From positions 84,630,001 to 84,694,000 of the forward strand of contig OZ024741.1 in the NCBI GenBank assembly GCA_964016885.1: DNA of 64,000 nucleotides. The letters are read 5' to 3'. The notes below the pieces were generated by a model. It was not told where the DNA came from, did no database searches, and saw nothing but the letters and a program-made list of their open reading frames with translations. The position numbers and the translations under genes were made by a program. This document shows positions 8,239-56,273 of this stretch, in pieces; the stretch's first letter is position 1, and each line of letters opens with the position of its first letter. The stretch comes from Eledone cirrhosa. Taxonomy: Eukaryota.

Positions 8239-9970
<1,732 letters not shown>

Positions 9971-11379: not shown

Positions 11380-12290
11380 AAAACAAAGCAAAATAACTGT
11401 GCCCTGAAGAAATATATTATTAGTTTTAGGTTCGATATCGTAGGAAAAGAGTCTTAACATTTCGTCAGAAAATAGAATGAGAAATTAAAGAAGAAATAGA
11501 AATAGAAGAATTTAGGAGACTGTGCAGTGGCAGAAATAGAAAACATTTTCTAGTTAAAAAAAACATGTTTATTCACGTCTCCTCTCCTGTCTAAAAAAAA
11601 ATTGTCTATTCACGTCTCCTCCTCTCCATCTGTTGATGCTGGCGTTTTATATCAGATGATGGTGTTTTGAAAGGTGGTGATCGAACTCGTCTAGCTGAAA
11701 AGGTGAAAAAAAACGTTTTATATATAGAGCTGTACGTGTGTCTGTTTGTCTGTTTGTTATTCGTCCCTAACGAAACTAAGAGGATATGTGTGTGTGTTTG
11801 TAAGGGCAAAGCTATAGGCGTATATATGTGTATATAAGGGTGTGTGTGTGTTTATGTGTGTTGGTTGTTGGTCCTTGCAGAGTGAAGGTAAGTATGTGTG
11901 TGTTTTTGATGGTCTGTATAAGCTTTAAGAGTGTGTGTTTCTGGCCATGACAGAATCATAGGTATCTAGAGGGTGAATGTATGCGTACATGTATGACAAC
12001 AGCGAAGTTTATAGACATAAGCACGAGCGTATATATACAAGATTATAGAAATTGGTGAGACGAGTTGAGTCCATTAGAGAAACTGCACCCAAGGCGGAAT
12101 ATGAGACTCTGCTCCGATCTGGTGCGTGAGGCCAGTGATCCATAATGTAAAAGAACATCAAGAAGTAAGACAGTTAAGGGAGAATGGCAGAGGGAACGGA
12201 AATGAATAGCGAATGGAGTGTACATGCCACGTCTAATTGTTCCTAAAGTGTTCACACAAACGGTGCACCTGGAGGTTATAGATAACGTTG
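11380..12290 (-). mobile_element. Second Neptune-like PLE 3' remnant (GIY-YIG end plus terminus with deleted HHR stem II)
   Basis: ORF 12043-12426 ends ..RSEQSLIFRLG..NGLNS. The terminus is homologous to 8275-8600. Confidence 0.7.
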
Positions 12291-14128: not shown

Positions 14129-14159
<31 letters not shown>

Positions 14160-14309
14160 CAGGTACACATACATATATGTACGTATCAGTTTAGCGGACG
14201 TTTATTATAACGCCCGCTTTGTCCGTTTGTAAACAAACTGACAGCCTGAATTTATGCCGTACGGTGTTAAGGCAACCATGTCACCTTTTTGTTCAACACT
14301 GACACAGGA

Positions 14310-14352
14310 ACGATGTACTAGTTTCAAGCTTCCTAGCTATCATCAGCACCGT
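14310..14352 (-). ncRNA. Minimal type I hammerhead
   Basis: ACGGTG-CTGATGA-TAGCT(AGGA)AGCTT-GAAA-CTAG-TA-CATCGT. Confidence 0.8.
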
Positions 14353-14514
14353 ATACCCTTCTGCTAGATGGTTGAACGTTCGAAAGTATATACTTTCCTT
14401 ATGAAAATTAACGGCTGAGCAGCCTAATTTGCATATCGAGTGAGTTCAGTCGGCCAGGCCGACTGAACTCACTCGATATGCAAATTAGTAGAAGTGTTTA
14501 TTTCTAAAGGGTAT

Positions 14515-14557
14515 ACGGTGCTGATGATAGCTAAGAAGCTTGAAACTAGTACATCGT
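14515..14557 (+). ncRNA. Minimal type I hammerhead
   Basis: ACGGTG-CTGATGA-TAGCT(AAGA)AGCTT-GAAA-CTAG-TA-CATCGT, palindromic stem III ACTAGT. Confidence 0.85.
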
Positions 14558-14738
14558 TCCTGTGTCAGTGTTGAACAAAAAGGTGACGTGGTTGCCTTAA
14601 CACCGTACGGCATAAATTCAGGCTGTCAGTTTGTTTACAAACGGACAAAGCGGGCGTTATAATAAACGTCCGCTAAACTGATACGTACATATATGTATGT
14701 GTACCTGTATGTATATATATATATATATATATATAAAA

Positions 14739-14799
<61 letters not shown>

Positions 14800-15035
14800 T
14801 GCTACTGTACGTCTGTATACATATATGTATGTACGTATACATACATACTTACATTTAAGTAAGTGCCGTACTAAGAGTGAGAAATGAAATTTCGTTTTCA
14901 TTTTATTACAACTTATCGTTTTCGGTGCGCCTGGCCGACTGAACTCACTCGATATGCAAATTAGGCTGCTCAGCCGTTAATTTTCAAAAGGAAAGTATAT
15001 ACTTTCGAACGTTCAACCATCTGGCAGAAGGGTAT

Positions 15036-15078
15036 ACTGTGCTGATGATAGCTAAGAAGCTTGAAACTAGTACATCGT
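15036..15078 (+). ncRNA. Minimal type I hammerhead (tandem copy)
   Basis: Same motif as 14515-14557 with one stem I change. Confidence 0.8.
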
Positions 15079-15228
15079 TCCTGTGTCAGTGTTGAACAAA
15101 AAGGTGACGTGGTTGCCTTAACACCGTACGGCATAAATTCAGGCTGTCAGTTTGTTTACAAACGGACAAAGCGGGCGTTATAATAAACGTCCGCTAAACT
15201 GATACGTACATATATGTATGTGTACCTG

Positions 15229-15264
<36 letters not shown>

Positions 15265-15374: not shown

Positions 15375-15500
15375 GTAGTAGGTGAGTTTTATTGTAGTAC
15401 AATAAAGCAATGCAGATATCGGATAAGAAGCACTCTACAGTTTGTAGGACTGGAGTATACATAATATAAGATCAAAAGATGGTTAAAGGAGTTCCATGTA

Positions 15501-15567
15501 TTTTATTATGCGCATTTCAAAAACAAACATCATCATGCAATAATATTTGTGTTTTCATCAGATAAAA
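15501..15567 (-). ncRNA. Type I hammerhead
   Basis: TTTTAT-CTGATGA-AAACACAAA..TTTGTTTTT-GAAA-TGCGCA-TA-ATAAAA. Confidence 0.8.
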
Positions 15568-16532
15568 CAGGAGAACATGATATGAAGGCTAAAAAACACT
15601 TGTGGATAGTGCAGTTTTAAATCAACATATGAAAAGTGGTTTTAGATTGATGTGTGATATTGGGAAAAATATTTTATTTAGAGAGGGGGGGGTGGAAAGG
15701 ATGAAAAAGGGGAGGAGATGAGAGGGAGAGATGGGTGATAGAGAGATAGTTTTTATAACTGAGAGGAGATATATTGTTTTACATAGAGAGGTTGAAAACC
15801 GTTGGAAGATAATGTATAAATTAAAAAAATTTGAAAATTAACGAAAGGAGGATATGTGCGAGGAAAAAGTATTTTATTTAGGGAGGGGGGTGGAAAGGAT
15901 GAAAAAAGGGGGAGGAGATGAGAGTGAAGGTGGAGAGGGAGAGATGGGTGATAGAGAACTACCTGTTAGATTAATTGCCCCCTCTAAATCTGATCTGGGG
16001 GTTGTTAGTAAAGCCATCTTGGATAGAATTATCCCACAGGTTAGTTCTAATTGCTCTTCTTTGAACCTAAATTTATGGTTTGGTACTTCTGAGGTGATTG
16101 GCTGGTTCAACAAATTGGATAATAAAAACAAACTAAAATTTATTCAATTCGATATTGCCAGCTACTATTCCTCCATTTCGCCTTCACTTCTCAATAATGC
16201 TCTATCTTTCGCACTTAAATATTCTGACATCACCACAGATGAACTTCACATCATCCTCACCGCACGTAAAACCATCCTAGATTTCAACAACGAATATTGG
16301 ACCAGAGCCGATACCTCTAACAACTTCGACATCACAATGGGAGCATCCGATTCATCTCTATCACCCATCTCCCCCTCTCATCTCCTCCCCTTTTTCATCC
16401 TTTCCACCCCCCCCCTCTCTAAATAAAATATTTTCCCCAATATCACACATCAATCTAAAACCACTTTTCATATGTTGATTTAAAACTGCACTATCCACAA
16501 GTGTTTTTTAGCCTTCATATCATGTTCTCCTG

Positions 16533-16599
16533 TTTTATCTGATGAAAACACAAATATTATTGCATGATGATGTTTGTTTTTGAAATGCGCATAATAAGA
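16533..16599 (+). ncRNA. Type I hammerhead (inverted copy of 15501-15567)
   Basis: Same core with palindromic stem III ATGCGCAT. Confidence 0.8.
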
Positions 16600-16631
16600 T
16601 ACATGGAACTCCTTTAACCATCTTTTGATCT

Positions 16632-16663
<32 letters not shown>

Positions 16664-17509
16664 CACAGATATCTATGTATATATATTTAACGAAGGTATG
16701 TATATATATAACACCACATATATGTATATATATATACTTATATATGAGAATAAACGTGCTGCGGGGTTGCTAATGGGTTACATATGAATAAAGTTAGTCC
16801 TTCATCAGTGATCTTCCAACCATCATTGGTATTTCATCGCTTTAAAGACCATATACCTCCGGTTGGTGCGAACAACGGCTAAAAAAAGTCGTTGGGACAC
16901 GTAAATAAAGGGGACACGAGTGTAAACAAACAAAAATGGTGAAGCAACGAAAAGTGAGGAAGAAGGAGTCAAATCCCAAATTTCTATGAATTTAAATTCC
17001 GTGAAATCGTGAACGAGAGTGAATAAAGACCATCAAACCTGGTTGGAATGTAAGCAAGGAAGGAATTCCGTGTACAGGTCTAACGGGAGGAAGAAGGGAT
17101 CTAGTCTGTGATTTCGGTGAACGTAAGTTCTGTGAAATCGTAGACTAGAGAGAGAAAAAAAGCGACCTGCCAGACCAAGGGTGCGAAAGAAAAGAATTAC
17201 GCACAGGTCAAACGGGAAGAAGGAGGAGGAGGAGAGGTAGTAACAGAGAAGGAGTGAGTGAAGGGTGAGGAAGAGGCTAACAGAGAGAGTGACTGCTAGA
17301 GAGGGTAAAGATACTAGTAGAAGTGTTTATTTCTAAAACAAGGTGTCAGTGATCCTATCAACGTAGTACATTATAACATAATTTTGTATGTAGACACTTA
17401 AAGACAATAAACATCAGATTGTCTAAAGTGTGATATAGAAAAAACACACAGAGGAAACAATAGATCAATAAATGCAAGTAAACATGATGAAAAAACCGTT
17501 GATATTTAC

Positions 17510-18719: not shown

Positions 18720-19060
18720 TATATAAGTATGTACACGTACATACATATATGTATACAGACGTACAGTAGTATGTATATATATATATATACATACATGCAC
18801 ACATATATATATGTACGTATGGATTCACCGAACATTTATTATAATGCTTGGTGTGTTTGTAAACAAACATCCCGTATTAAGCCGTAGTGTCTAGAAACCA
18901 TCGTTGCTCGTTTGTTCAACACTGACAAAGGAACGCTGCACAAGTTTCAAGCTTATTAGCTATCGTCAGCAACGTATACCTTCCTGCCAGATTGTACGTG
19001 TACTTATATTTAAGTAACAGCCATACTAAGAGTGGGAAATGAAATTTCGTTTCATTTTTT
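18720..19060 (-). mobile_element. Older diverged copy of the 14 kb PLE terminus with decayed HHR (18933-18975)
   Basis: CTGACGA-TAGCT(AATA)AGCTT-GAAA-CTTG-TG. The flanks align to the 14 kb unit. Confidence 0.75.
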
Positions 19061-22522: not shown

Positions 22523-22526
22523 ACAA

Positions 22527-23850
22527 TCTATATATATAAAACTGTGGTTGTCTGTCTGTCTATCGATTTTTGGCACACATCTCCTCTTAGAATCTCTGAC
22601 GGAATTGCACCGAATTTGCTATACTTGTACATTGAGCCCTAGCGAAGACATCGGAAAAAAATATTTCAAATTGACCCACCCTATGTGACGAAATCGAATA
22701 TAATGTATCGATTTTTGAGCGTAAGTTATCAGTTATTTCCCTTTGTTCTGTTTACATTGAGCGTCTTACGTAAAAAATTACGCTGGCTTTCTCAGCGTTT
22801 AAAATGACATTAACACAATACACGAACAGTTGTCGAGCCAGCAAAATATTGACCTGCAAAATTCATCAGTTCGAACACTAAGCTTCCGTTTTGCTTCATT
22901 TCCATTTAAAAGCATTTTAAAACAATATTTTTACTTGAAAACAAGTCTATTTAAAGACTACGTAAAACAAGCAAATATTTCAGGCGTGCAGACAGACAGT
23001 CGTGCAGAGAGGTGATATAGGCGTGCAGACAGACATCTATATATATAAAACTGTGGTTGTCTGTCTGTCTATCGATTTTTGGCACACATCTCCTCTTAGA
23101 ATCTCTGACGGAATTGCACTGAAATTGCTATACTTGTACATTGAGCCCTAGCGAAGACATCGGAAAAAAATATTTCAAATTGACCCACCCTATGTGACGA
23201 AATCGAATATAATGTATCGATTTTTGAGCGTAAGTTATCAGTTATTTCCCTTTGTTCTGTTTACATTGAGCGTCTTACGTAAAAAATTACGCTGGCTTTC
23301 TCAGCGTTTAAAATGACATTAACACAATACACGAACAGTTGTCGAGCCAGCAAAATATTGACCTGCAAAATTCATCAGTTCGAACACTAAGCTTCCGTTT
23401 TGCTTCATTTCCATTTAAAAGCATTTTAAAACAATATTTTTACTTGAAAACAAGTCTATTTAAAGACTACGTAAAACAAGCAAATATTTCAGGCGTGCAG
23501 ACAGACAGTCGTGCAGAGAGGTGATATAGGCGTGCAGACAGACATAACTGATAATTTGGTTACGCTAATGTTTTTCTCTGCGTTGCAGTGTTTACATTTT
23601 CGATCTTTGTTAATAAATAACCAGTGCAGTTTTTATCCCCAGCATCCTCTTTTGTTATAACATTCGGGTTATCGTTATGTTTTCTTAACTTCATAAGGCA
23701 TATTGTTGGTTGAGGGAATATTAATCAAAAACACCACATGCAAGTCTGCACAGAAGACATTACAGTTTTTAAGCCAAAAAAAGAAACTTAACATTGTAAC
23801 TTTAACACAGCTACTGAGCGACCCCGAGCAACGCCAGGCTTTACTGCTAG
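22527..23850 (+). mobile_element. Non-autonomous Helitron with duplicated 509 bp 5' segment
   Basis: 5' TCTATATATATAAAA at 22527 and 23036. The 3' end has an imperfect GC hairpin followed by CTAG (23847-23850). The element is inserted between A22526 and T23851 with no TSD. Confidence 0.9.
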
Positions 23851-29395: not shown

Positions 29396-29496
29396 AGGTT
29401 TCCGCATCAGTTGTCTACTGGGGGTATCGGATATTTCTACGCTTTAAAGACAAGATATCTACCGCCCAGGGCGTCAATAACTGGATACGTTATTGG
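29396..29496 (-). ncRNA. Permuted hammerhead-like pseudoknot motif, copy with CTGATGC
   Basis: Homologous to 30265-30364. Confidence 0.5.
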
Positions 29497-30018
29497 GAAA
29501 ACAGAGAAGGGAAGAAAAGAGAAAATAGTGGAAAAACAGCGAAAAAAAAAACAACAAACCGAGCAATGTGCGAGCAATTTAATGTAAGAAAATCCAAGAC
29601 CACTCGATGAGAGAACTTAAGTTCAAGACTGAGTGGTCGAGAGAAAAAAGACACACGTCTGATCCCAGCAGTTGTAAGTGCGAAAAGAACTACTAGAGGG
29701 TCAGGCGAGGGGGTGAAAGTGAGAGGGAGAAAGGGAGAGGAAGAAAGTGGTGTAAGTGTAGATAGTAACGAAATAGTTAGGTAGGAGAAGAGAGAAGACT
29801 GGTAGAGATGATGAGTGAAAGTGAGAGAGAGAAAGGGAGAGGAAGAAAGAGGGGGAGTGTAGAAAGTAGCGAAATAGGTAGGTAGAGGGGGAGAGGGAAG
29901 AATGGTCACAGTGAAAACATGATAAAATATATGGAGAATAGAAATGGCTGTTTAGATGCTATTTAAGGTATCTTAAAATGGAGTGGGAATAAAAAGAAAG
30001 CAAGAACGGGGGGGGGGG

Positions 30019-30116
30019 GGGTCCTCATGAGTTGTCTACTGGGGGTCTCGGATATTTCTACGGTTTAAAGACAAGATATCTACCGCCCAGGGCATCAATA
30101 ACTGGATAAGTTATTG
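30019..30116 (-). ncRNA. Permuted hammerhead-like pseudoknot motif, copy with CTCATGA
   Basis: Homologous to 30265-30364. Confidence 0.5.
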
Positions 30117-30264
30117 AGAAGACTAAGGAGGGAGGGAAGGAAAACAAATGGGAAGAAAAGAGAAAAAAAAGCACATTGCTCGGTTTGTTGGGATTTTTCG
30201 GTGTTTTTTCACTGTTTTCTCTTTTCTTCCCTTTTGTTTTCCTTCCCTCCCTATTCCGTTTTCC

Positions 30265-30364
30265 CAATAACTTATCCAGTTATTGATACCCTGGGCGGTA
30301 GATATCTTGTCTTTAAAACATAGAAATATCCGAGACCCCCAGTAGACAACTGATGAGGAGACCC
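30265..30364 (+). ncRNA. Candidate non-cyclically permuted, pseudoknotted hammerhead-like RNA with kink-turn (intact core)
   Basis: CTGGG-CGGTA-GATAT-C-TTGTCT-TTAAAACATA-GAA-ATATC-CGA-GA-CCCCCAG-T-AGACAA-CTGATGA-GG. Stems covary with 53126-53229. Confidence 0.6.
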
Positions 30365-31458: not shown

Positions 31459-31890
31459 ATCATTGCTGTAGTGGAGTCTGTGCTGCTGTATGGGTCTGAG
31501 ACTTGGACACTGACCAAGAAACTCACTCAGATGGTGGATGGGTGCTACACGAGAATACTGAGGATGGCTCTGAACATTAATCAGTATACACTGAGGATGA
31601 AAAACTCCGAGCTGTATGGGAGCATCCCAAAAGTCAGCTCAAAAGTGACACAGGGGAGACTGAGGTTAGCTGGACATGCTCACCGACATCCAGAGTTGAC
31701 ATTGCACTCAGTACTCCTTTGGGAGCCCCTACATGGACACACTAGAAGAGGAAGACCAAGGTTAACGTATGTTGATGCCCTAAGGACAGACACTGGTTTG
31801 TTGGAGTTGCAGGACATGGCAGCGATAATGAGGGACAGAGACCGCTGGAGAGAACTCGTCCATGGATCTCGGGAATTTTACCCGCCTTAG
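31459..31890 (+). mobile_element. RTE/RTE-X LINE 3' fragment, 5'-truncated, in (TA)n
   Basis: [46 protein letters not shown], followed by a (TAGA)n tail. Nearly identical to 55714-56143. Confidence 0.9.
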
Positions 31891-45695: not shown

Positions 45696-45790
45696 AATAA
45701 TCTGTTATTTTAATAAATATATATATATATATATATATAGAATAAGGAAAAGCGAAGTAGTTTCAGATGTTCAAGTCCTTTAATAATAAT

Positions 45791-45864
45791 GCTGTGATAT
45801 ATATTTCAGTGACGACACTGGCCACACTGTTTTGTGTGCGAGTGTCGTGTCATCATCAGACAGC
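45791..45864 (-). ncRNA. Type I hammerhead
   Basis: GCTGT-CTGATGA-TGACACGACACT..AGTGTCGTCACT-GAAA-TATATA-TC-ACAGC. Confidence 0.85.
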
Positions 45865-47140
45865 TTGTTACATAATAAGGTTATGTTTCCGAGGCAATCC
45901 AAATTGGATCGACATGGGAACGGATGAATTGCGTGTTTTGGGGTTTTTCATCCGCTCCCTTGTGAGTACCAATTCACCCCCCACCCTTCTGCGCAAGCGC
46001 ATGTCCGAAGGAAGTTGACCATTAGCCACCGCATAATTTAGCTCCAATTAGTTGAGCGCTTTACGATGTAACCGATATGGTGGAGAAGAGAGGAACCAAC
46101 CATAGGCTACCCCAGAAATTCCCTCTACCATGGGAATGGAAACCCCTTACACTGGACGGACATAATAGTAACTTTCTGCAGGATAAATACGCGGAAACAA
46201 ATAATAGGATAAACCCCTATTTTCCTGCACCAAATCGCATTTGAACAGAAGCCCCCTCAATTCAATCTATACATGGACAGATGGACAATCATATGGATCA
46301 TTTTGCATATATGTACTCTGTGTTTTTGCATTTATTCACTATTAGTTCTGTTCTTTCCTTTGTGTACTTTATGTCTGTTTTTCTTTGATTTTGTTCCATG
46401 TGATGGAAATTATGACTGTACCAGATTGACTAATGCCTAGAGCCCTGTAGTTTTCCCTCAGTTATGATGTACGGCACTGTCGTTCAATATGTGGATAGAG
46501 TAACTGTGACACTAGAATCCCTCTCAGAACATATTACTTAAACATCTCTCTCCATATTATTTACTCACTTCAGTCTATATTTTTACTCACCTCAATCCGA
46601 ATTATCACCTGAAAAGAATTTTTTTTAATTATTTAATTTCTAATTGTTAATTTCTTAATTGTTTAATTTATAATTTCTGATATTTGATTTAGGATTTTAA
46701 TTTTTATTTCCAACTCTCACTCTTAACTTCCAACGTAAAACCATGACACCTAGAATTAAGTTTATCTTCCCTTATAAGGTGATGGTCAGTCGTACCGTCA
46801 ACGCTTAGTGAGGGGTAGTATTATGACCTGTAAAAACTAACACTCTCCCATCCCCTCTGGCTCTAACTGACTGCCACAGCCGTGATGGGTAGCAGTAAAG
46901 TATGGTACAGGCATTGGTGGGCCATTGTTTTGACTGAGAGGGTGAACTGACTAAGCGAATTTCGTTGAAATCTGCGGTGGCTAATGGTCAACTTCCTTCG
47001 GACATGCGCTTGCGCAGACCGGTGGGGGGAATTGGTACTCACAAGGGAGCGGATGAAAAACCCCAAAACACGCAATTCATCTGTTCCCATGTCGATCCAA
47101 TTTGGATTGCCTCGGAAACATAACCTTATTATGTAACAAG

Positions 47141-47212
47141 CTGTCTGATGATGTCACGACACTCGCACACAGAACAGTGTGGCCAGTGTCGTCACTGAAA
47201 TATATATCACAG
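47141..47212 (+). ncRNA. Type I hammerhead (inverted copy of 45791-45864)
   Basis: CTGT-CTGATGA-..ACGACACT..AGTGTCGT..-GAAA-TATATA-TC-ACAG. Confidence 0.85.
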
Positions 47213-47253
47213 AATTATTATTAAAGGACTTGAACATCTGAAACTACTTCGCT

Positions 47254-47347
<94 letters not shown>

Positions 47348-51900: not shown

Positions 51901-52923
51901 CATCAAAGAAACACTGGTTCATTGTCTTTCTGGTATCGAGTGTGGCTACCTAATATTCAAGGAAATAATATATGTCTCCTGGCTTGCAAAGAGGAACATT
52001 GCGCGTAATCATATTTTCCATGGTGCATATTGGTGCATAACTCACATAGACCCAGGTCCAGGTGATCTGATAACAGGATACATCATTATTATTGTATCCT
52101 GGGTACAACAGGCAGCCTCATCCACATGATTCGAATGAGCTTAATCGAGCTTTAAACTGTGTCCAAGTAATACTCTAAGTCCTCCCACATATATAATCAT
52201 GTGGATAAGGCAGTCTGTTGTAGCAAGGGCACAATAATGATAATTTGTACCGTAGTCAGAATACCTGAATGTGAGTGTATTATGAAAGAGCACGTTGTGA
52301 CTCCGGGATACAACACATATGATGTGTCTAAATAGAAGCATCATGAAAAACATGATATTTCCATAAATATGATTCCACATAATGTTCCTCTTTTCAAGCG
52401 ACGAGAGACACATTATTCTCTTTCAAGGTTAGACAGTTATATCCGAAACGAGAAAGACCGTGAACCACTGTTTCTTTGTTGATAAGGTGAGACCAACCTT
52501 ATTGTTCACCACTAGCTGATTTGTAAATCTGTGTTTCGGTTTTTTAGTCATGGAAGCTTTTACGTTGATAGTTTTCTAACTAAAGAACAATTTGACTACA
52601 GTCGTGGCTATTCACCTCTGGCGCCAGCAGTGGCCATAACCTTTCTGCAAACTCATGACTATTCCTTTCGAATAATATCTGATAATGAAGCTCTTCTGTA
52701 TTAACTACATGCGTATCTGCTGCAAATGTGCATATTTTCAGTTCCCACTCTGAGAAAACGATTTATAACCGTTTACATCGAGTGTTGTTCGGACGATTCT
52801 TGATTTGTCAGTTTGTGGTGTCACCGGACAGTGCTATGGAGAATGAACTACTCTATCTCACTCTATCCCTCTCTTTCTCCTCTCTCTCTCCTCTCCCTCT
52901 CTCTCTCTCTCTCTCTCTCCCTA

Positions 52924-53265
52924 TACAATAACTAAATTAAGTTATTGAGATAAAAAGAATTGGTGGAGAAAGAGAGACAGGTAAACAAACACGAATGGTG
53001 AGGTAACGTAAAGAGAGGAAAACATAAGAAAATCAAGTCAATGATTCATTTTGAACATAAGAACTTTGCCTCACCATTCGTGTTTATTTACCTGTCTCTC
53101 TTTCTCCACCCAGTTCTTTTTATCCCAATAACTTAATTTAGTTATTGTATTGCCCTAGCCGGAGGTATATGGTCTGTAATGCGAAAAAATACCTATGATG
53201 GCTAGTAGACCACTGATGACGGATAGTCCTGGCTTCTATTTCTAATTTTTCATTTTATTATATAT
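52924..53265 (+). mobile_element. Short PLE-like terminus with 5' inversion (about 52924-53006 and 53067-53150)
   Basis: Reverse-complement arms between (CT)n and (TA)n. Carries the permuted motif. Confidence 0.65.
53126..53229 (+). ncRNA. Permuted hammerhead-like pseudoknot with canonical kink-turn (second family)
   Basis: CTAGCC-GGA-GGTAT-A-TGGTCT-GTAATGCGAA-AAA-ATACC-TAT-GA-T-GGCTAG-T-AGACCA-CTGATGA. The G12 position is A in this copy. Confidence 0.55.
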
Positions 53266-54835
53266 ATAATAATTGCAACAACACAGCTCACCATTTTTCA
53301 TTCATATATGCTTTCCCGTTCGCTGTGACCTGTCTTTTTCTCTTCCCTTACTGCTATCCTCTTTCTCTCTATACATATATATATATATACATACATAAAT
53401 ACATACATACATACATTCATACATATATATATAGCGGTTTTCAATCATCTACATATCCAAATGCTTGGACATATCATCCAGAGAGCTTTCCAAGACACAC
53501 CTTCATCCATGTAACCTTACCAATATTGACCAAACCTCAACATGTGTCCATGCAGCGTAGTCCTGAACCCTTCTCTTCAGATAGAGCCCTCTGGAGCTCT
53601 TCTCGGCTCTTCTCACTTTGTTTTTGGTAGCCCTTCAATAATACTAATTTTTCGTATAGTTTACGAAGGGAACGACCTGCAAACACTCGGATGTCAACTT
53701 CCACTAGCTTTCACAATGCTTCATATAAAATATTACATTATGTATAATGTCTTTCTATTTAGAGACATCTACATGCTCTTTCATCGTAGTCATATTTATG
53801 ATAGAGTATGTAGATTTAAAAAGTCGGAGGTGGTTAGATAAAAGTAGTTTAACAATATCAATCTTACGTTGTGCACTTCTTTTAAAACTGAAAACTCGTT
53901 AATACATGTGTAATTTATCTGATATTTATGGTATTTAAATCTCGTAAATATTTTCGTTCTTTAAAAGAAGATTAGCTTCAAAATTCTATTTTATATGTAG
54001 TTTATCCTAGTTTTAATGTTTTCACCAACGAAACGCTTTTGTGAACGTCGATCTTCCTTAATGTTGATTGTGAGAGTACGTGGGTGGGGGGTGTAATCAA
54101 CTAGCTGTTAATGGCAACAAATAAAAACAGAGATATAGAAGGGAAAGAGAAAAAGAGTGTGTGTGTGTGAAATATGGCATTTTAAATAGAAGAGACTATG
54201 AACTAAAAATGTGTAGTAGTCATTATACTTTTAACAAGATTGTGGATGCAAGAATCGCTAAGTGGTAAAGAAGTTTGCTTCAAAATGAAGAGGAACTGCG
54301 TTCGAGCCACTTTGGGCAAGTATTTTAGTATAGTCTCGTTTCGACCATAGCTTGTATGCGAAACTTTGAAAGCCCTTCGTATGGATTGTATCTGTAATTC
54401 AAATGTCCAGCCTTGACACCTATTGTCACATTCCTTCGGTTGGGGTATTTCATTAATGGTACCCGTGTCTTATGAAATACCCTGCCGACTACACATTAAT
54501 TCAACTTGTAGATGTTGAAAAAAACCTGACAAAGGATCCTTCTTTGACAAGCTTGGAATAAATTTAGATATTATATTTCCTATAAAAACTATTGTAGTGA
54601 ATGAAAGCAGAACTTCCGTTGTGCGTCATATACAGCTGAGTCAAACGAGATGTGTACAGGATAGAGAATCACGTAGTCAAGCGAAATGTTTAGGGGATAG
54701 AGTACAGTTGTCTCATGCCAGATGTATATGGAACAAAGCACGGTTGATTTAGGCTATATATAAAATTAAAATGTTAAGTTAAAAACTGGCAATAATCCCG
54801 TTTAATAAAATAAGCTCAAGGAAACACACGCACGC

Positions 54836-55286: not shown

Positions 55287-56189
<903 letters not shown>

Positions 56190-56273
56190 AAAGGTAAACA
56201 GAAATAACAACACAATCGGTACGGTATATGGAAGGTATATATTAGTTCAACGCTAGATATAGCAGGAAGAGGG

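Follow-up and report, generated by a model that had tools for sequence, protein, structure and literature searches.

A candidate hammerhead of permuted block order, with a kink-turn beside stem III, carried by abundant tandem repeats of Eledone cirrhosa

Near 53 kb of a 64-kb window of the Eledone cirrhosa assembly (the window being the whole 64,000-nt stretch of DNA that was analyzed), the conserved words of a hammerhead ribozyme stand in a permuted order, which raises the question of whether they can assemble into a hammerhead and what such a motif does in a genome. An earlier note had proposed a permuted hammerhead at this site, and our results bear out that topology: positions 53121-53225 (+) hold a hammerhead-type motif with block order S-G-C, in which stems I and III covary and a standard kink-turn (k-turn) lies between stem III and an outer helix, P0. 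The best explanation of the sequence data is that this motif represents a type SGC-like hammerhead element of very abundant small non-coding tandem repeats. We term it a variant of type SGC and not a member, because its functional layout is like that type, yet one defining feature is missing.

Previously, non-circularly permuted hammerheads were described from environmental sequences, without host or role (Eckert 2023, PMC10085705). In that study, type SGC is one order among six published permutations and consists of block S (stem III, UH, stem I), block G (stem II, GAAA, stem III) and block C (stem I, CUGAUGA). The scheme assumes that CUGAnGA is inseparable from the stem II strand, and the search patterns demand CUGAUGA(U)G, then the stem II strand, CGAAA, and a G-C pair at 10.1-11.1 (PMC10085705). 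At 53 kb, by comparison, we found no intact block C of this kind: the bases after A9 pair upstream, forming a closing helix (Pc), and the strand for stem II is found upstream of P0 (Table 1). A canonical type I, II or III reading was rejected, as no GAAA follows CUGAUGA. In family A, to which the 53 kb motif belongs, a local hairpin after A9 (GGA-TAG-TCC) was considered as a leftover stem II, and this idea was dropped because those bases pair upstream in all families.

Table 1. Features of the 53 kb motif, its insertion and the related copies in the window
Feature	Position	Strand	Remarks
Closing helix Pc, 5' strand TATCC	53121-53125	+	Pairs with 53221-53225; pair probability 0.86-0.98
5' hairpin, CAATAAC (53126-53132) and GTTATTG (53141-53147)	53126-53147	+	3/7 pairs double-changed; 95% of cells paired
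Displaced 5' strand TTGC of distal stem II	53150-53153	+	Pseudoknot with 53181-53184; 100% of cells paired, 2/4 pairs double-changed (9 representatives)
Outer helix P0, CTAGCC and GGCTAG	53155-53160 and 53200-53205	+	5/6 pairs double-changed
k-turn non-bulged strand: 3n G, 2n G, 1n A	53161-53163	+	28/29 per position in family A; GA in 20/30 unselected copies
Block S: stem III strand GGTAT (53164-53168), H17, stem I strand TGGTCT (53170-53175)	53164-53175	+	Stem I 5/6 and stem III 2/5 pairs double-changed; U16.1 is 53168, H17 is A53169
5-nt linker, stem II strand GCGA and A11.1, block G, stem III strand ATACC (53189-53193)	53176-53193	+	G at 53186 in 28/29 aligned copies; 53186 (G12) is A in the window copy, followed by A13, A14, A15.1
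k-turn bulge TAT (53194-53196), 1b G, 2b A, 3b U, P0 3' strand GGCTAG	53194-53205	+	1b,2b GA in 29/30 unselected copies; G.A, A.G and U.G pairs are 53197-53199 against 53163-53161
1-nt linker T53206, stem I strand AGACCA (53207-53212), CTGATGA (53213-53219), position 10.1	53206-53220	+	Family A alignment; 10.1 is C in the window copy, T in 16/29 family A copies
Closing helix Pc, 3' strand GGATA	53221-53225	+	Pairs with 53121-53125
Family A insertion, forward arm	53063-53370	+	Monomer positions 469 to 201 of the next unit
TA/ATAC microsatellite ending the forward arm	53371-53433		
Family A insertion, inverted 5'-truncated arm	52923-53066	-	Monomer 413-555; stops before the ribozyme core
Family B copy	30250-30361	+	Distal stem II broken (ATAC vs ACAT; commonest letters ACGC/GCGT)
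Inverted family B copy	30022-30129	-	Changed core CTCATGA
Tandem family B copy	29397-29510	-	Changed core CTGATGC
Family C copy	16786-16912	-	Intact core, standard k-turn

Positions follow the hammerhead numbering, in which G12 is the catalytic base. An alignment of 29 family A copies (the window copy and 28 others; locus L005 was omitted, as it overlaps L004) showed C3 in 28, G8 in 26, and U4, G5, A6 and A9 in all 29; U16.1, the A15.1-U16.1 pair and A or C at H17 were also found in 29 of 29. Among 30 unselected copies, U16.1 was present in 25 and H17 was A, C or T, never G, in all 30; the variation at N7 (T or C) and at H17 stays within hammerhead limits. In all 10 clusters outside family E, the predominant letter is unchanged at C3-A9, at G12-A15.1, at U16.1 and at the GA and A of the k-turn; for the core, this invariance is partly by construction because families D-I were found with core-demanding descriptors. 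C11.1 is present only in families D and E. The earlier note had cautioned that G12 is A in this copy, and it is; the family consensus is G (28 of 28 other aligned copies), so the window copy is a point mutant. Because A replaces the catalytic G12, the 53 kb copy itself is probably dead. By analogy with known hammerheads, the predicted cut would fall at 53169/53170, and the ribozymes of the repeats are likely to cut their own transcripts into unit lengths.

We examined covariation in nine natural family representatives, family E being excluded for its different spacing. Results showed that 96.6% of 296 cells pair and that 19 of 33 pairs are double-changed; neither value was reached in any of 500 shuffles, a control that overstates significance, and whose count is not a probability, because the families are related. 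Partner-sliding controls gave 30-47% paired. Double changes were found in the closing helix (1 of 4 pairs; ATCC/GGAT, GTCC/GGAC or TTCC/GGAA across families), in the 10.1-11.1 pair and in the other helices as listed in Table 1, and stems I and III are paired in 100% of cells. The compensatory changes reported earlier for P0, stem III and stem I were all located and extend across the nine representatives, and the T linker, the CTGATGA word and the upstream hairpin are likewise present as described. The concern that stem I and the outer helix might exclude each other is eased, since they use different bases and are not mutually exclusive by sequence; both covary. Two further helices, the 4-bp distal stem II and Pc, are added here; the earlier note had named no stem II, closing helix or retrozyme-like carrier. 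Distal stem II reads TTGC/GCGA in the window copy, ACGC/GCGT in families B and H, TCGC/GCGA in C, D, F and I, TTGC/GCAA in G and GGCGC/GCGCC in E, which carries another hairpin sequence in the same 5' place. All wobble pairs except one favour the ribozyme strand; the exception lies in the 5' hairpin of families C, D and I (alignment A2, columns 19 and 30), where an A.C mismatch would be a G.U pair on the opposite strand.

The main weakness of the hammerhead reading is the weak pair under G12 (10.1-11.1) in families A and B. In family A it is U-A in 16 of 29 copies, with C.A in the window copy, and in family B it is G.A. The pair forms in 6 of 8 representatives, the other 4 stem II base pairs coming from the 5' strand, and in 26 of 30 unselected copies (G.U in 11, A-U in 10, G-C in 5). 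When the window copy was folded with RNAfold, the four nested helices (Pc, the hairpin, P0 and stem III) were found unaided at probabilities of 0.86-1.00, and the outer pseudoknot strands were mostly free in the nested ensemble (unpaired probability 0.78 and 0.91). The 4 bp of distal stem II amount to -1.5 kcal/mol as a duplex, the 3' strand having an unpaired probability of 0.39 in the same ensemble. Against shuffles, the nested folds reached z-scores no better than -0.6 to -1.7, and for families D and E the minimum-energy fold departs from the proposed scaffold; such results can arise when two helices are pseudoknots.

CUGA is the box D word and UGAUGA the box C word. The motif might, on this resemblance, be a box C/D snoRNA-like element that has been misread as a hammerhead, or else a chance or decayed rearrangement that was passively amplified in repeats, which would suit the scattered core-position mutations seen in genomic copies. 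Both possibilities are largely refuted by the double changes in all seven helices across families, and we consider them highly improbable. Nothing in the 64-kb window matched Rfam at gathering score, and near the site only sub-threshold miRNA and snoRNA matches appeared, from the inverted repeat and microsatellites. A box C/D snoRNA was also rejected on order, the D-like word lying 5' of the C-like word, the reverse of the snoRNA arrangement.

The pairings suggest how hammerhead parts in S-G-C order could meet. As covariation shows, Pc, the 5' hairpin, P0 and stem III form a nested scaffold of four helices, and the loop capping stem III makes two pairings with the outer loop, namely stem I, of 6 bp, and distal stem II, of 4 bp. 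UH, GAAA and CUGAUGA are thereby placed in hammerhead positions despite their order. The two loops sit at opposite ends of one duplex, made of stem III and P0, which must therefore fold back. We infer that this bend comes from the k-turn or, in family E, from a 5-nt bulge, and it is plausible that the kink makes the pseudoknotted fold feasible.

The k-turn that had been read here, a TAT bulge followed by G.A, A.G and U.G pairs, is present in full. In family A the bulge is UAU, followed by G.A and A.G, with U:G at 3b:3n, C:G at -1b:-1n and G:C at 4b:4n; P0 forms the non-canonical arm and is topologically the 'I' helix of type SGC. The 3-nt bulge with G.A and A.G occurs in 28-29 of 29 family A copies per position and in 8 of 9 representatives; both GA are present in 20 of 31 pattern matches, and C:G at -1b:-1n in 24 of 30. 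Most family B copies have U at 2n, and one B subfamily is standard. An A.U pair at 2b:2n is a known k-turn variant; it was seen, with the CGA bulge, in the 30 kb copy as the earlier note had described, together with one bulged C in the outer helix. Family E carries, at the same joint and without a k-turn, a 5-nt pyrimidine-rich bulge on the opposite strand (18 distinct copies). What is conserved thus seems to be bending at this joint, usually by means of a k-turn.

Previous work showed that C:G at -1b:-1n together with U:G at 3b:3n favours folding in Mg2+ alone, that G:C at 4b:4n lowers this folding somewhat, and that U:U plus G:C leaves folding very impaired without protein (PMC5689011). The U:U plus G:C combination occurs in only 2 of the 20 standard k-turns among the 31 matches. 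The family A sequence predicts protein-free folding, and by this rule protein help is possible for some families and not needed for family A. Protein assistance, which had been suggested for the 53 kb motif, is thus weakened for family A and stands as a possibility for some families.

No kinked cage would be needed if the pairings formed between two units or molecules, as in a dimeric hammerhead. The copies do occur in tandem, vertebrate retrozyme hammerheads act as dimers (PMC7229834), and the absence of stems I and II from single-strand nested predictions is expected under either model. The conserved bend (the k-turn in 8 of 9 representatives, the bulge in E), the fixed 1-nt and 5-nt linkers and the closing helix instead fit a compact single unit, and published type SGC motifs, which share the block order, cleave in vitro as single constructs at 0.007-0.19 per min (PMC10085705). 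We regard the dimeric arrangement as quite unlikely.

The frequency of this layout was determined in the assembly, which comprises 3.0 Gb and is microsatellite-rich, with a pattern consisting of the linker, GAAA, a 23-base gap and CTGAYGA. This pattern fixes only two invariant bases of distal stem II and leaves stems I and III, P0, the UH site and the k-turn free. It yielded 9,643 + 9,862 = 19,505 exact matches, and the reversed control yielded 0. In the first 30 matches, at least 5 of 6 pairs formed in stem I (28 matches) and P0 (22), at least 4 of 5 in stem III (25), and 4 of 4 in distal stem II (20) and the closing helix (21); stems I and III, P0 and distal stem II were found all together in 22; 29 matches had the k-turn GA of the bulged strand, and 20 had that of the non-bulged one. 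The same helix test applied to pattern matches elsewhere gave 0 of 109 scored metagenome matches (120 loci; 25 of 64 parts scanned) and 0 of 14 scored viral matches (16 loci); a complete distal stem II was found in 0 of the 109 scored metagenome matches versus 20 of 30 unselected copies. A loose descriptor found 2 matches in 800 kb of unselected assembly sequence and 1 in 10 shuffles of it. As to expression, no RNA dataset was listed as containing the stretch; two contig sets carry the repeat family, and no ends are visible there.

A first look returned 2,394 candidates for family A (40 scored), 2,126 for family B, typified by the 30 kb motif, and 895 for family C, the third in the window. The best 40 family C copies are 99-100% identical, as in a young family. 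Unit positions 259-528 of family C (L070:1818-2088) contain an internal 130-nt duplication at ~72% identity, which may explain the greater unit length. Descriptor and profile scans of fetched loci added families D, E, F, G, H and I and single degenerate copies of two more; D, E and H are multi-copy by DNA search, and the pattern search turned up F, G and I repeatedly. A DNA search with a family G copy gave no matches, though the pattern search lists G copies. The 53 kb copy had been thought to represent an independent family within unalignable flanks, and neither point held: the monomer bodies of families A and B are homologous (local score 64 versus a maximum of 50 in 200 shuffles), as are those of A and C (88 versus 43), with ~62-68% identity in aligned columns; the B-C alignment, at 32, did not exceed its shuffles (maximum 45). 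Family E (L191-L210) has 690-699 nt units, a GUC cleavage triplet and a 5-bp stem II drawn wholly from the 5' strand. Its body similarity to A and B is marginal, and hence it may be a deep branch or have a separate origin.

The carriers are non-coding monomers with one ribozyme per unit, in partial tandem and inverted arrays that end in (TA)n. Unit spacing is 562-699 nt (two deleted units of 426 and 518 nt were set aside), and units are 71-76% pyrimidine on the ribozyme strand. Across 90 loci, no shared sequence or shared long ORF was found beyond the monomer. Of 77 matches to the upstream segment, 74 lead into the SGC order, and none leads into a core of canonical order alone. We then considered 179 arms from six families, at loci chosen for containing the ribozyme: 171 end 60-165 nt past the predicted cut, where ATAT/TATA motifs also cluster, and 159 run into (TA)3+. 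One predicted cut site is crossed by 169 arms and two by 33; insertions thus retain uncut junctions, for which circles or incomplete cleavage are needed. Within -5 to +15 of the predicted cut, 10 5' ends were found versus 4.0 expected (P = 0.0085 for 172 of the 179 arms, 7 being skipped, in a post hoc window with 7 bins), an excess that gives weak support to RNA ends at the predicted cut.

The clustering of 3' ends just downstream of the domain and the uncut junctions kept in most arms might also mean that the fold is real and acts chiefly as a signal by which a borrowed RT or a k-turn-binding protein is bound or positioned, with cleavage slow or vestigial. This would suit the weak 10.1-11.1 pair in families A and B and the location of Pc and the 5' hairpin outside the catalytic core. 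We consider such a signal unlikely, however: the catalytic-core letters and the UH site all persist while the stems turn over, the ATAT/TATA motifs and the choice of loci bear on the 3'-end clustering, and the modest 5'-end excess falls at the predicted cut and not at the 3' edge of the fold.

The reading that we favour, and consider likely, is that the single-unit, kinked and pseudoknotted hammerhead cuts tandem transcripts into units, and that these would be turned into circles and returned to the genome by a Penelope-like enzyme. Transcription running through a tandem array would yield RNA that is cleaved 3' of H17, with ligation of each unit into a circle, as has been reported for metazoan retrozymes. 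At a nicked (TA)n, a Penelope-like RT might then use AUAU motifs lying 60-165 nt past the cut for priming and continue over the junction, which would generate the partial tandem and inverted insertions. Suitable enzymes exist, since a truncated Penelope-like ORF (RT motifs and GIY-YIG) shares the (TA)n of a repeat at L015. This 5'-truncated element (RT motifs, Cys-rich linker, GIY-YIG, PF01541) lies in (TA)n at L015:1761-3149 and L231:300-1650, and also at L108, with an inverted copy of its own 5' part downstream and no obvious hammerhead. Among the loci examined, we saw no autonomous element that has an end in common with these repeats. The ORF at L015 was rejected as an autonomous partner because (TA)n separates it from the repeat and the downstream region has no such motif by eye, and a family H pair 2.8 kb apart proved to be a local duplication without an RT ORF.

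Other hammerhead-bearing repeats were observed in the window. A separate family of canonical minimal type I hammerheads occurs at 8396 and 56305 (-) and, degenerate, at 11468; it has a short palindromic stem III and one extra A after CUGAUGA. Its 25-base core has 3,797 exact matches in the assembly, and of 20 loci, 3 have GIY-YIG-like motifs, which in 2 of them lie upstream on the same strand. Origin of the SGC repeats from this canonical hammerhead family was rejected: the only similarities were a weak match of 38 nt and, in L417, an SGC copy inserted separately. A third hammerhead-bearing repeat, of canonical type I order and nested inverted, spans 14129-15259 and recurs at 18969 (-), with a fragment near 17320-17380. 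In the whole window CTGATGA occurs 22 times versus 9.15 expected, and sites in inverted or direct repeat pairs lie at 15456-16644, 22526-23334 and 45750-47254. A coding repeat with two copies (31470-31700 and 55720-56200) is presumably the end of an RTE-type LINE reverse transcriptase.

Altogether, the results assign a candidate non-circularly permuted hammerhead to an animal genome, where its copy number is very high and its many diverged families supply natural covariation. In the openly accessible literature covered, a 'type-SGC' hammerhead was met only in Eckert 2023 (PMC10085705), and such a motif in an animal genome was not found among the matches listed. Since CUGAUGA and the stem II strand can no longer be regarded as inseparable, their separation would explain why type I and SGC patterns and Rfam miss the motif, and censuses of animal retrozymes may undercount. 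The motif is well suited to testing, being 105 nt long, with natural dead copies and with families predicted to differ in ion-driven or protein-dependent k-turn folding. We lean slightly towards a broader proposal drawn from these sequences: that an active, four-part-permuted hammerhead, caged by a k-turn joining stem III to the helix that bridges stems I and II, would be the processing ribozyme of an animal retrozyme superfamily of ~20,000 copies, that no earlier non-circularly permuted ribozyme would have had both its host and its genetic role known, and that some of its families might be switchable by the host 15.5K protein.

The repeats resemble metazoan non-LTR retrozymes, which are non-coding low-GC tandem units with one ribozyme each, dispersed as monomers to short multimers, and which are thought to use Penelope-like enzymes, as we propose here (PMC7229834; bioRxiv 10.64898/2026.07.22.740005). 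Circular RNA has been shown for those elements in the same two studies. Their hammerheads are of type I and were detected with type I descriptors, unlike the S-G-C motif, and their units measure ~170-400 nt (PMC7229834) or 51-972 nt (bioRxiv 10.64898/2026.07.22.740005), compared with 562-699 nt here. Penelope-like elements share 5' truncation, partial tandems, an adjacent inverted truncated copy and microsatellite targets with these repeats (PMC8557442); unlike them, the repeats have no ORF, and the pLTR hammerheads are minimal type I, similar in this to the separate canonical family at 8396 and 56305 of the window.

As in type SGC (HRIMA-1 and variants; PMC10085705), the blocks follow the S-G-C order, two stems are pseudoknotted, the linker between stems I and II is short, and stems I and II are linked at their outer ends by an extra helix, here P0 at 1 nt from each. 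In the SGC-2 oligos, CUGAUGA is succeeded by the stem II strand, a single G and the bridging strand (PMC10085705); family E has the same run at its 5' end. Unlike type SGC, the present motif has its stem II and bridging strands upstream of block S. Its chain is therefore open beside A9, a break that the three-block scheme takes to be impossible, and the split of the CUGAUGA block from stem II places the motif outside the six published permutations. A closing helix and a hairpin are added, and the bridging helix enters stem III through a k-turn. In a few of the published RNAs the bridging helix meets stem III without a spacer, a geometry described as not obvious (PMC10085705). We infer that a sharp bend at this joint would resolve it, and a k-turn there offers a direct, testable answer; the word 'kink' is absent from the supplement of that study, and no paper on a natural k-turn inside a hammerhead was found among the matches listed. 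The k-turn itself is like the standard ones of Kt-7, the SAM-I riboswitch and box C/D RNAs (PMC5689011) in its 3-nt bulge, tandem G.A and A.G pairs and C:G at -1b:-1n. As in SAM-I, the predicted bend would bring a loop to a distant partner, and unlike the standard k-turns the canonical arm here is hammerhead stem III itself.
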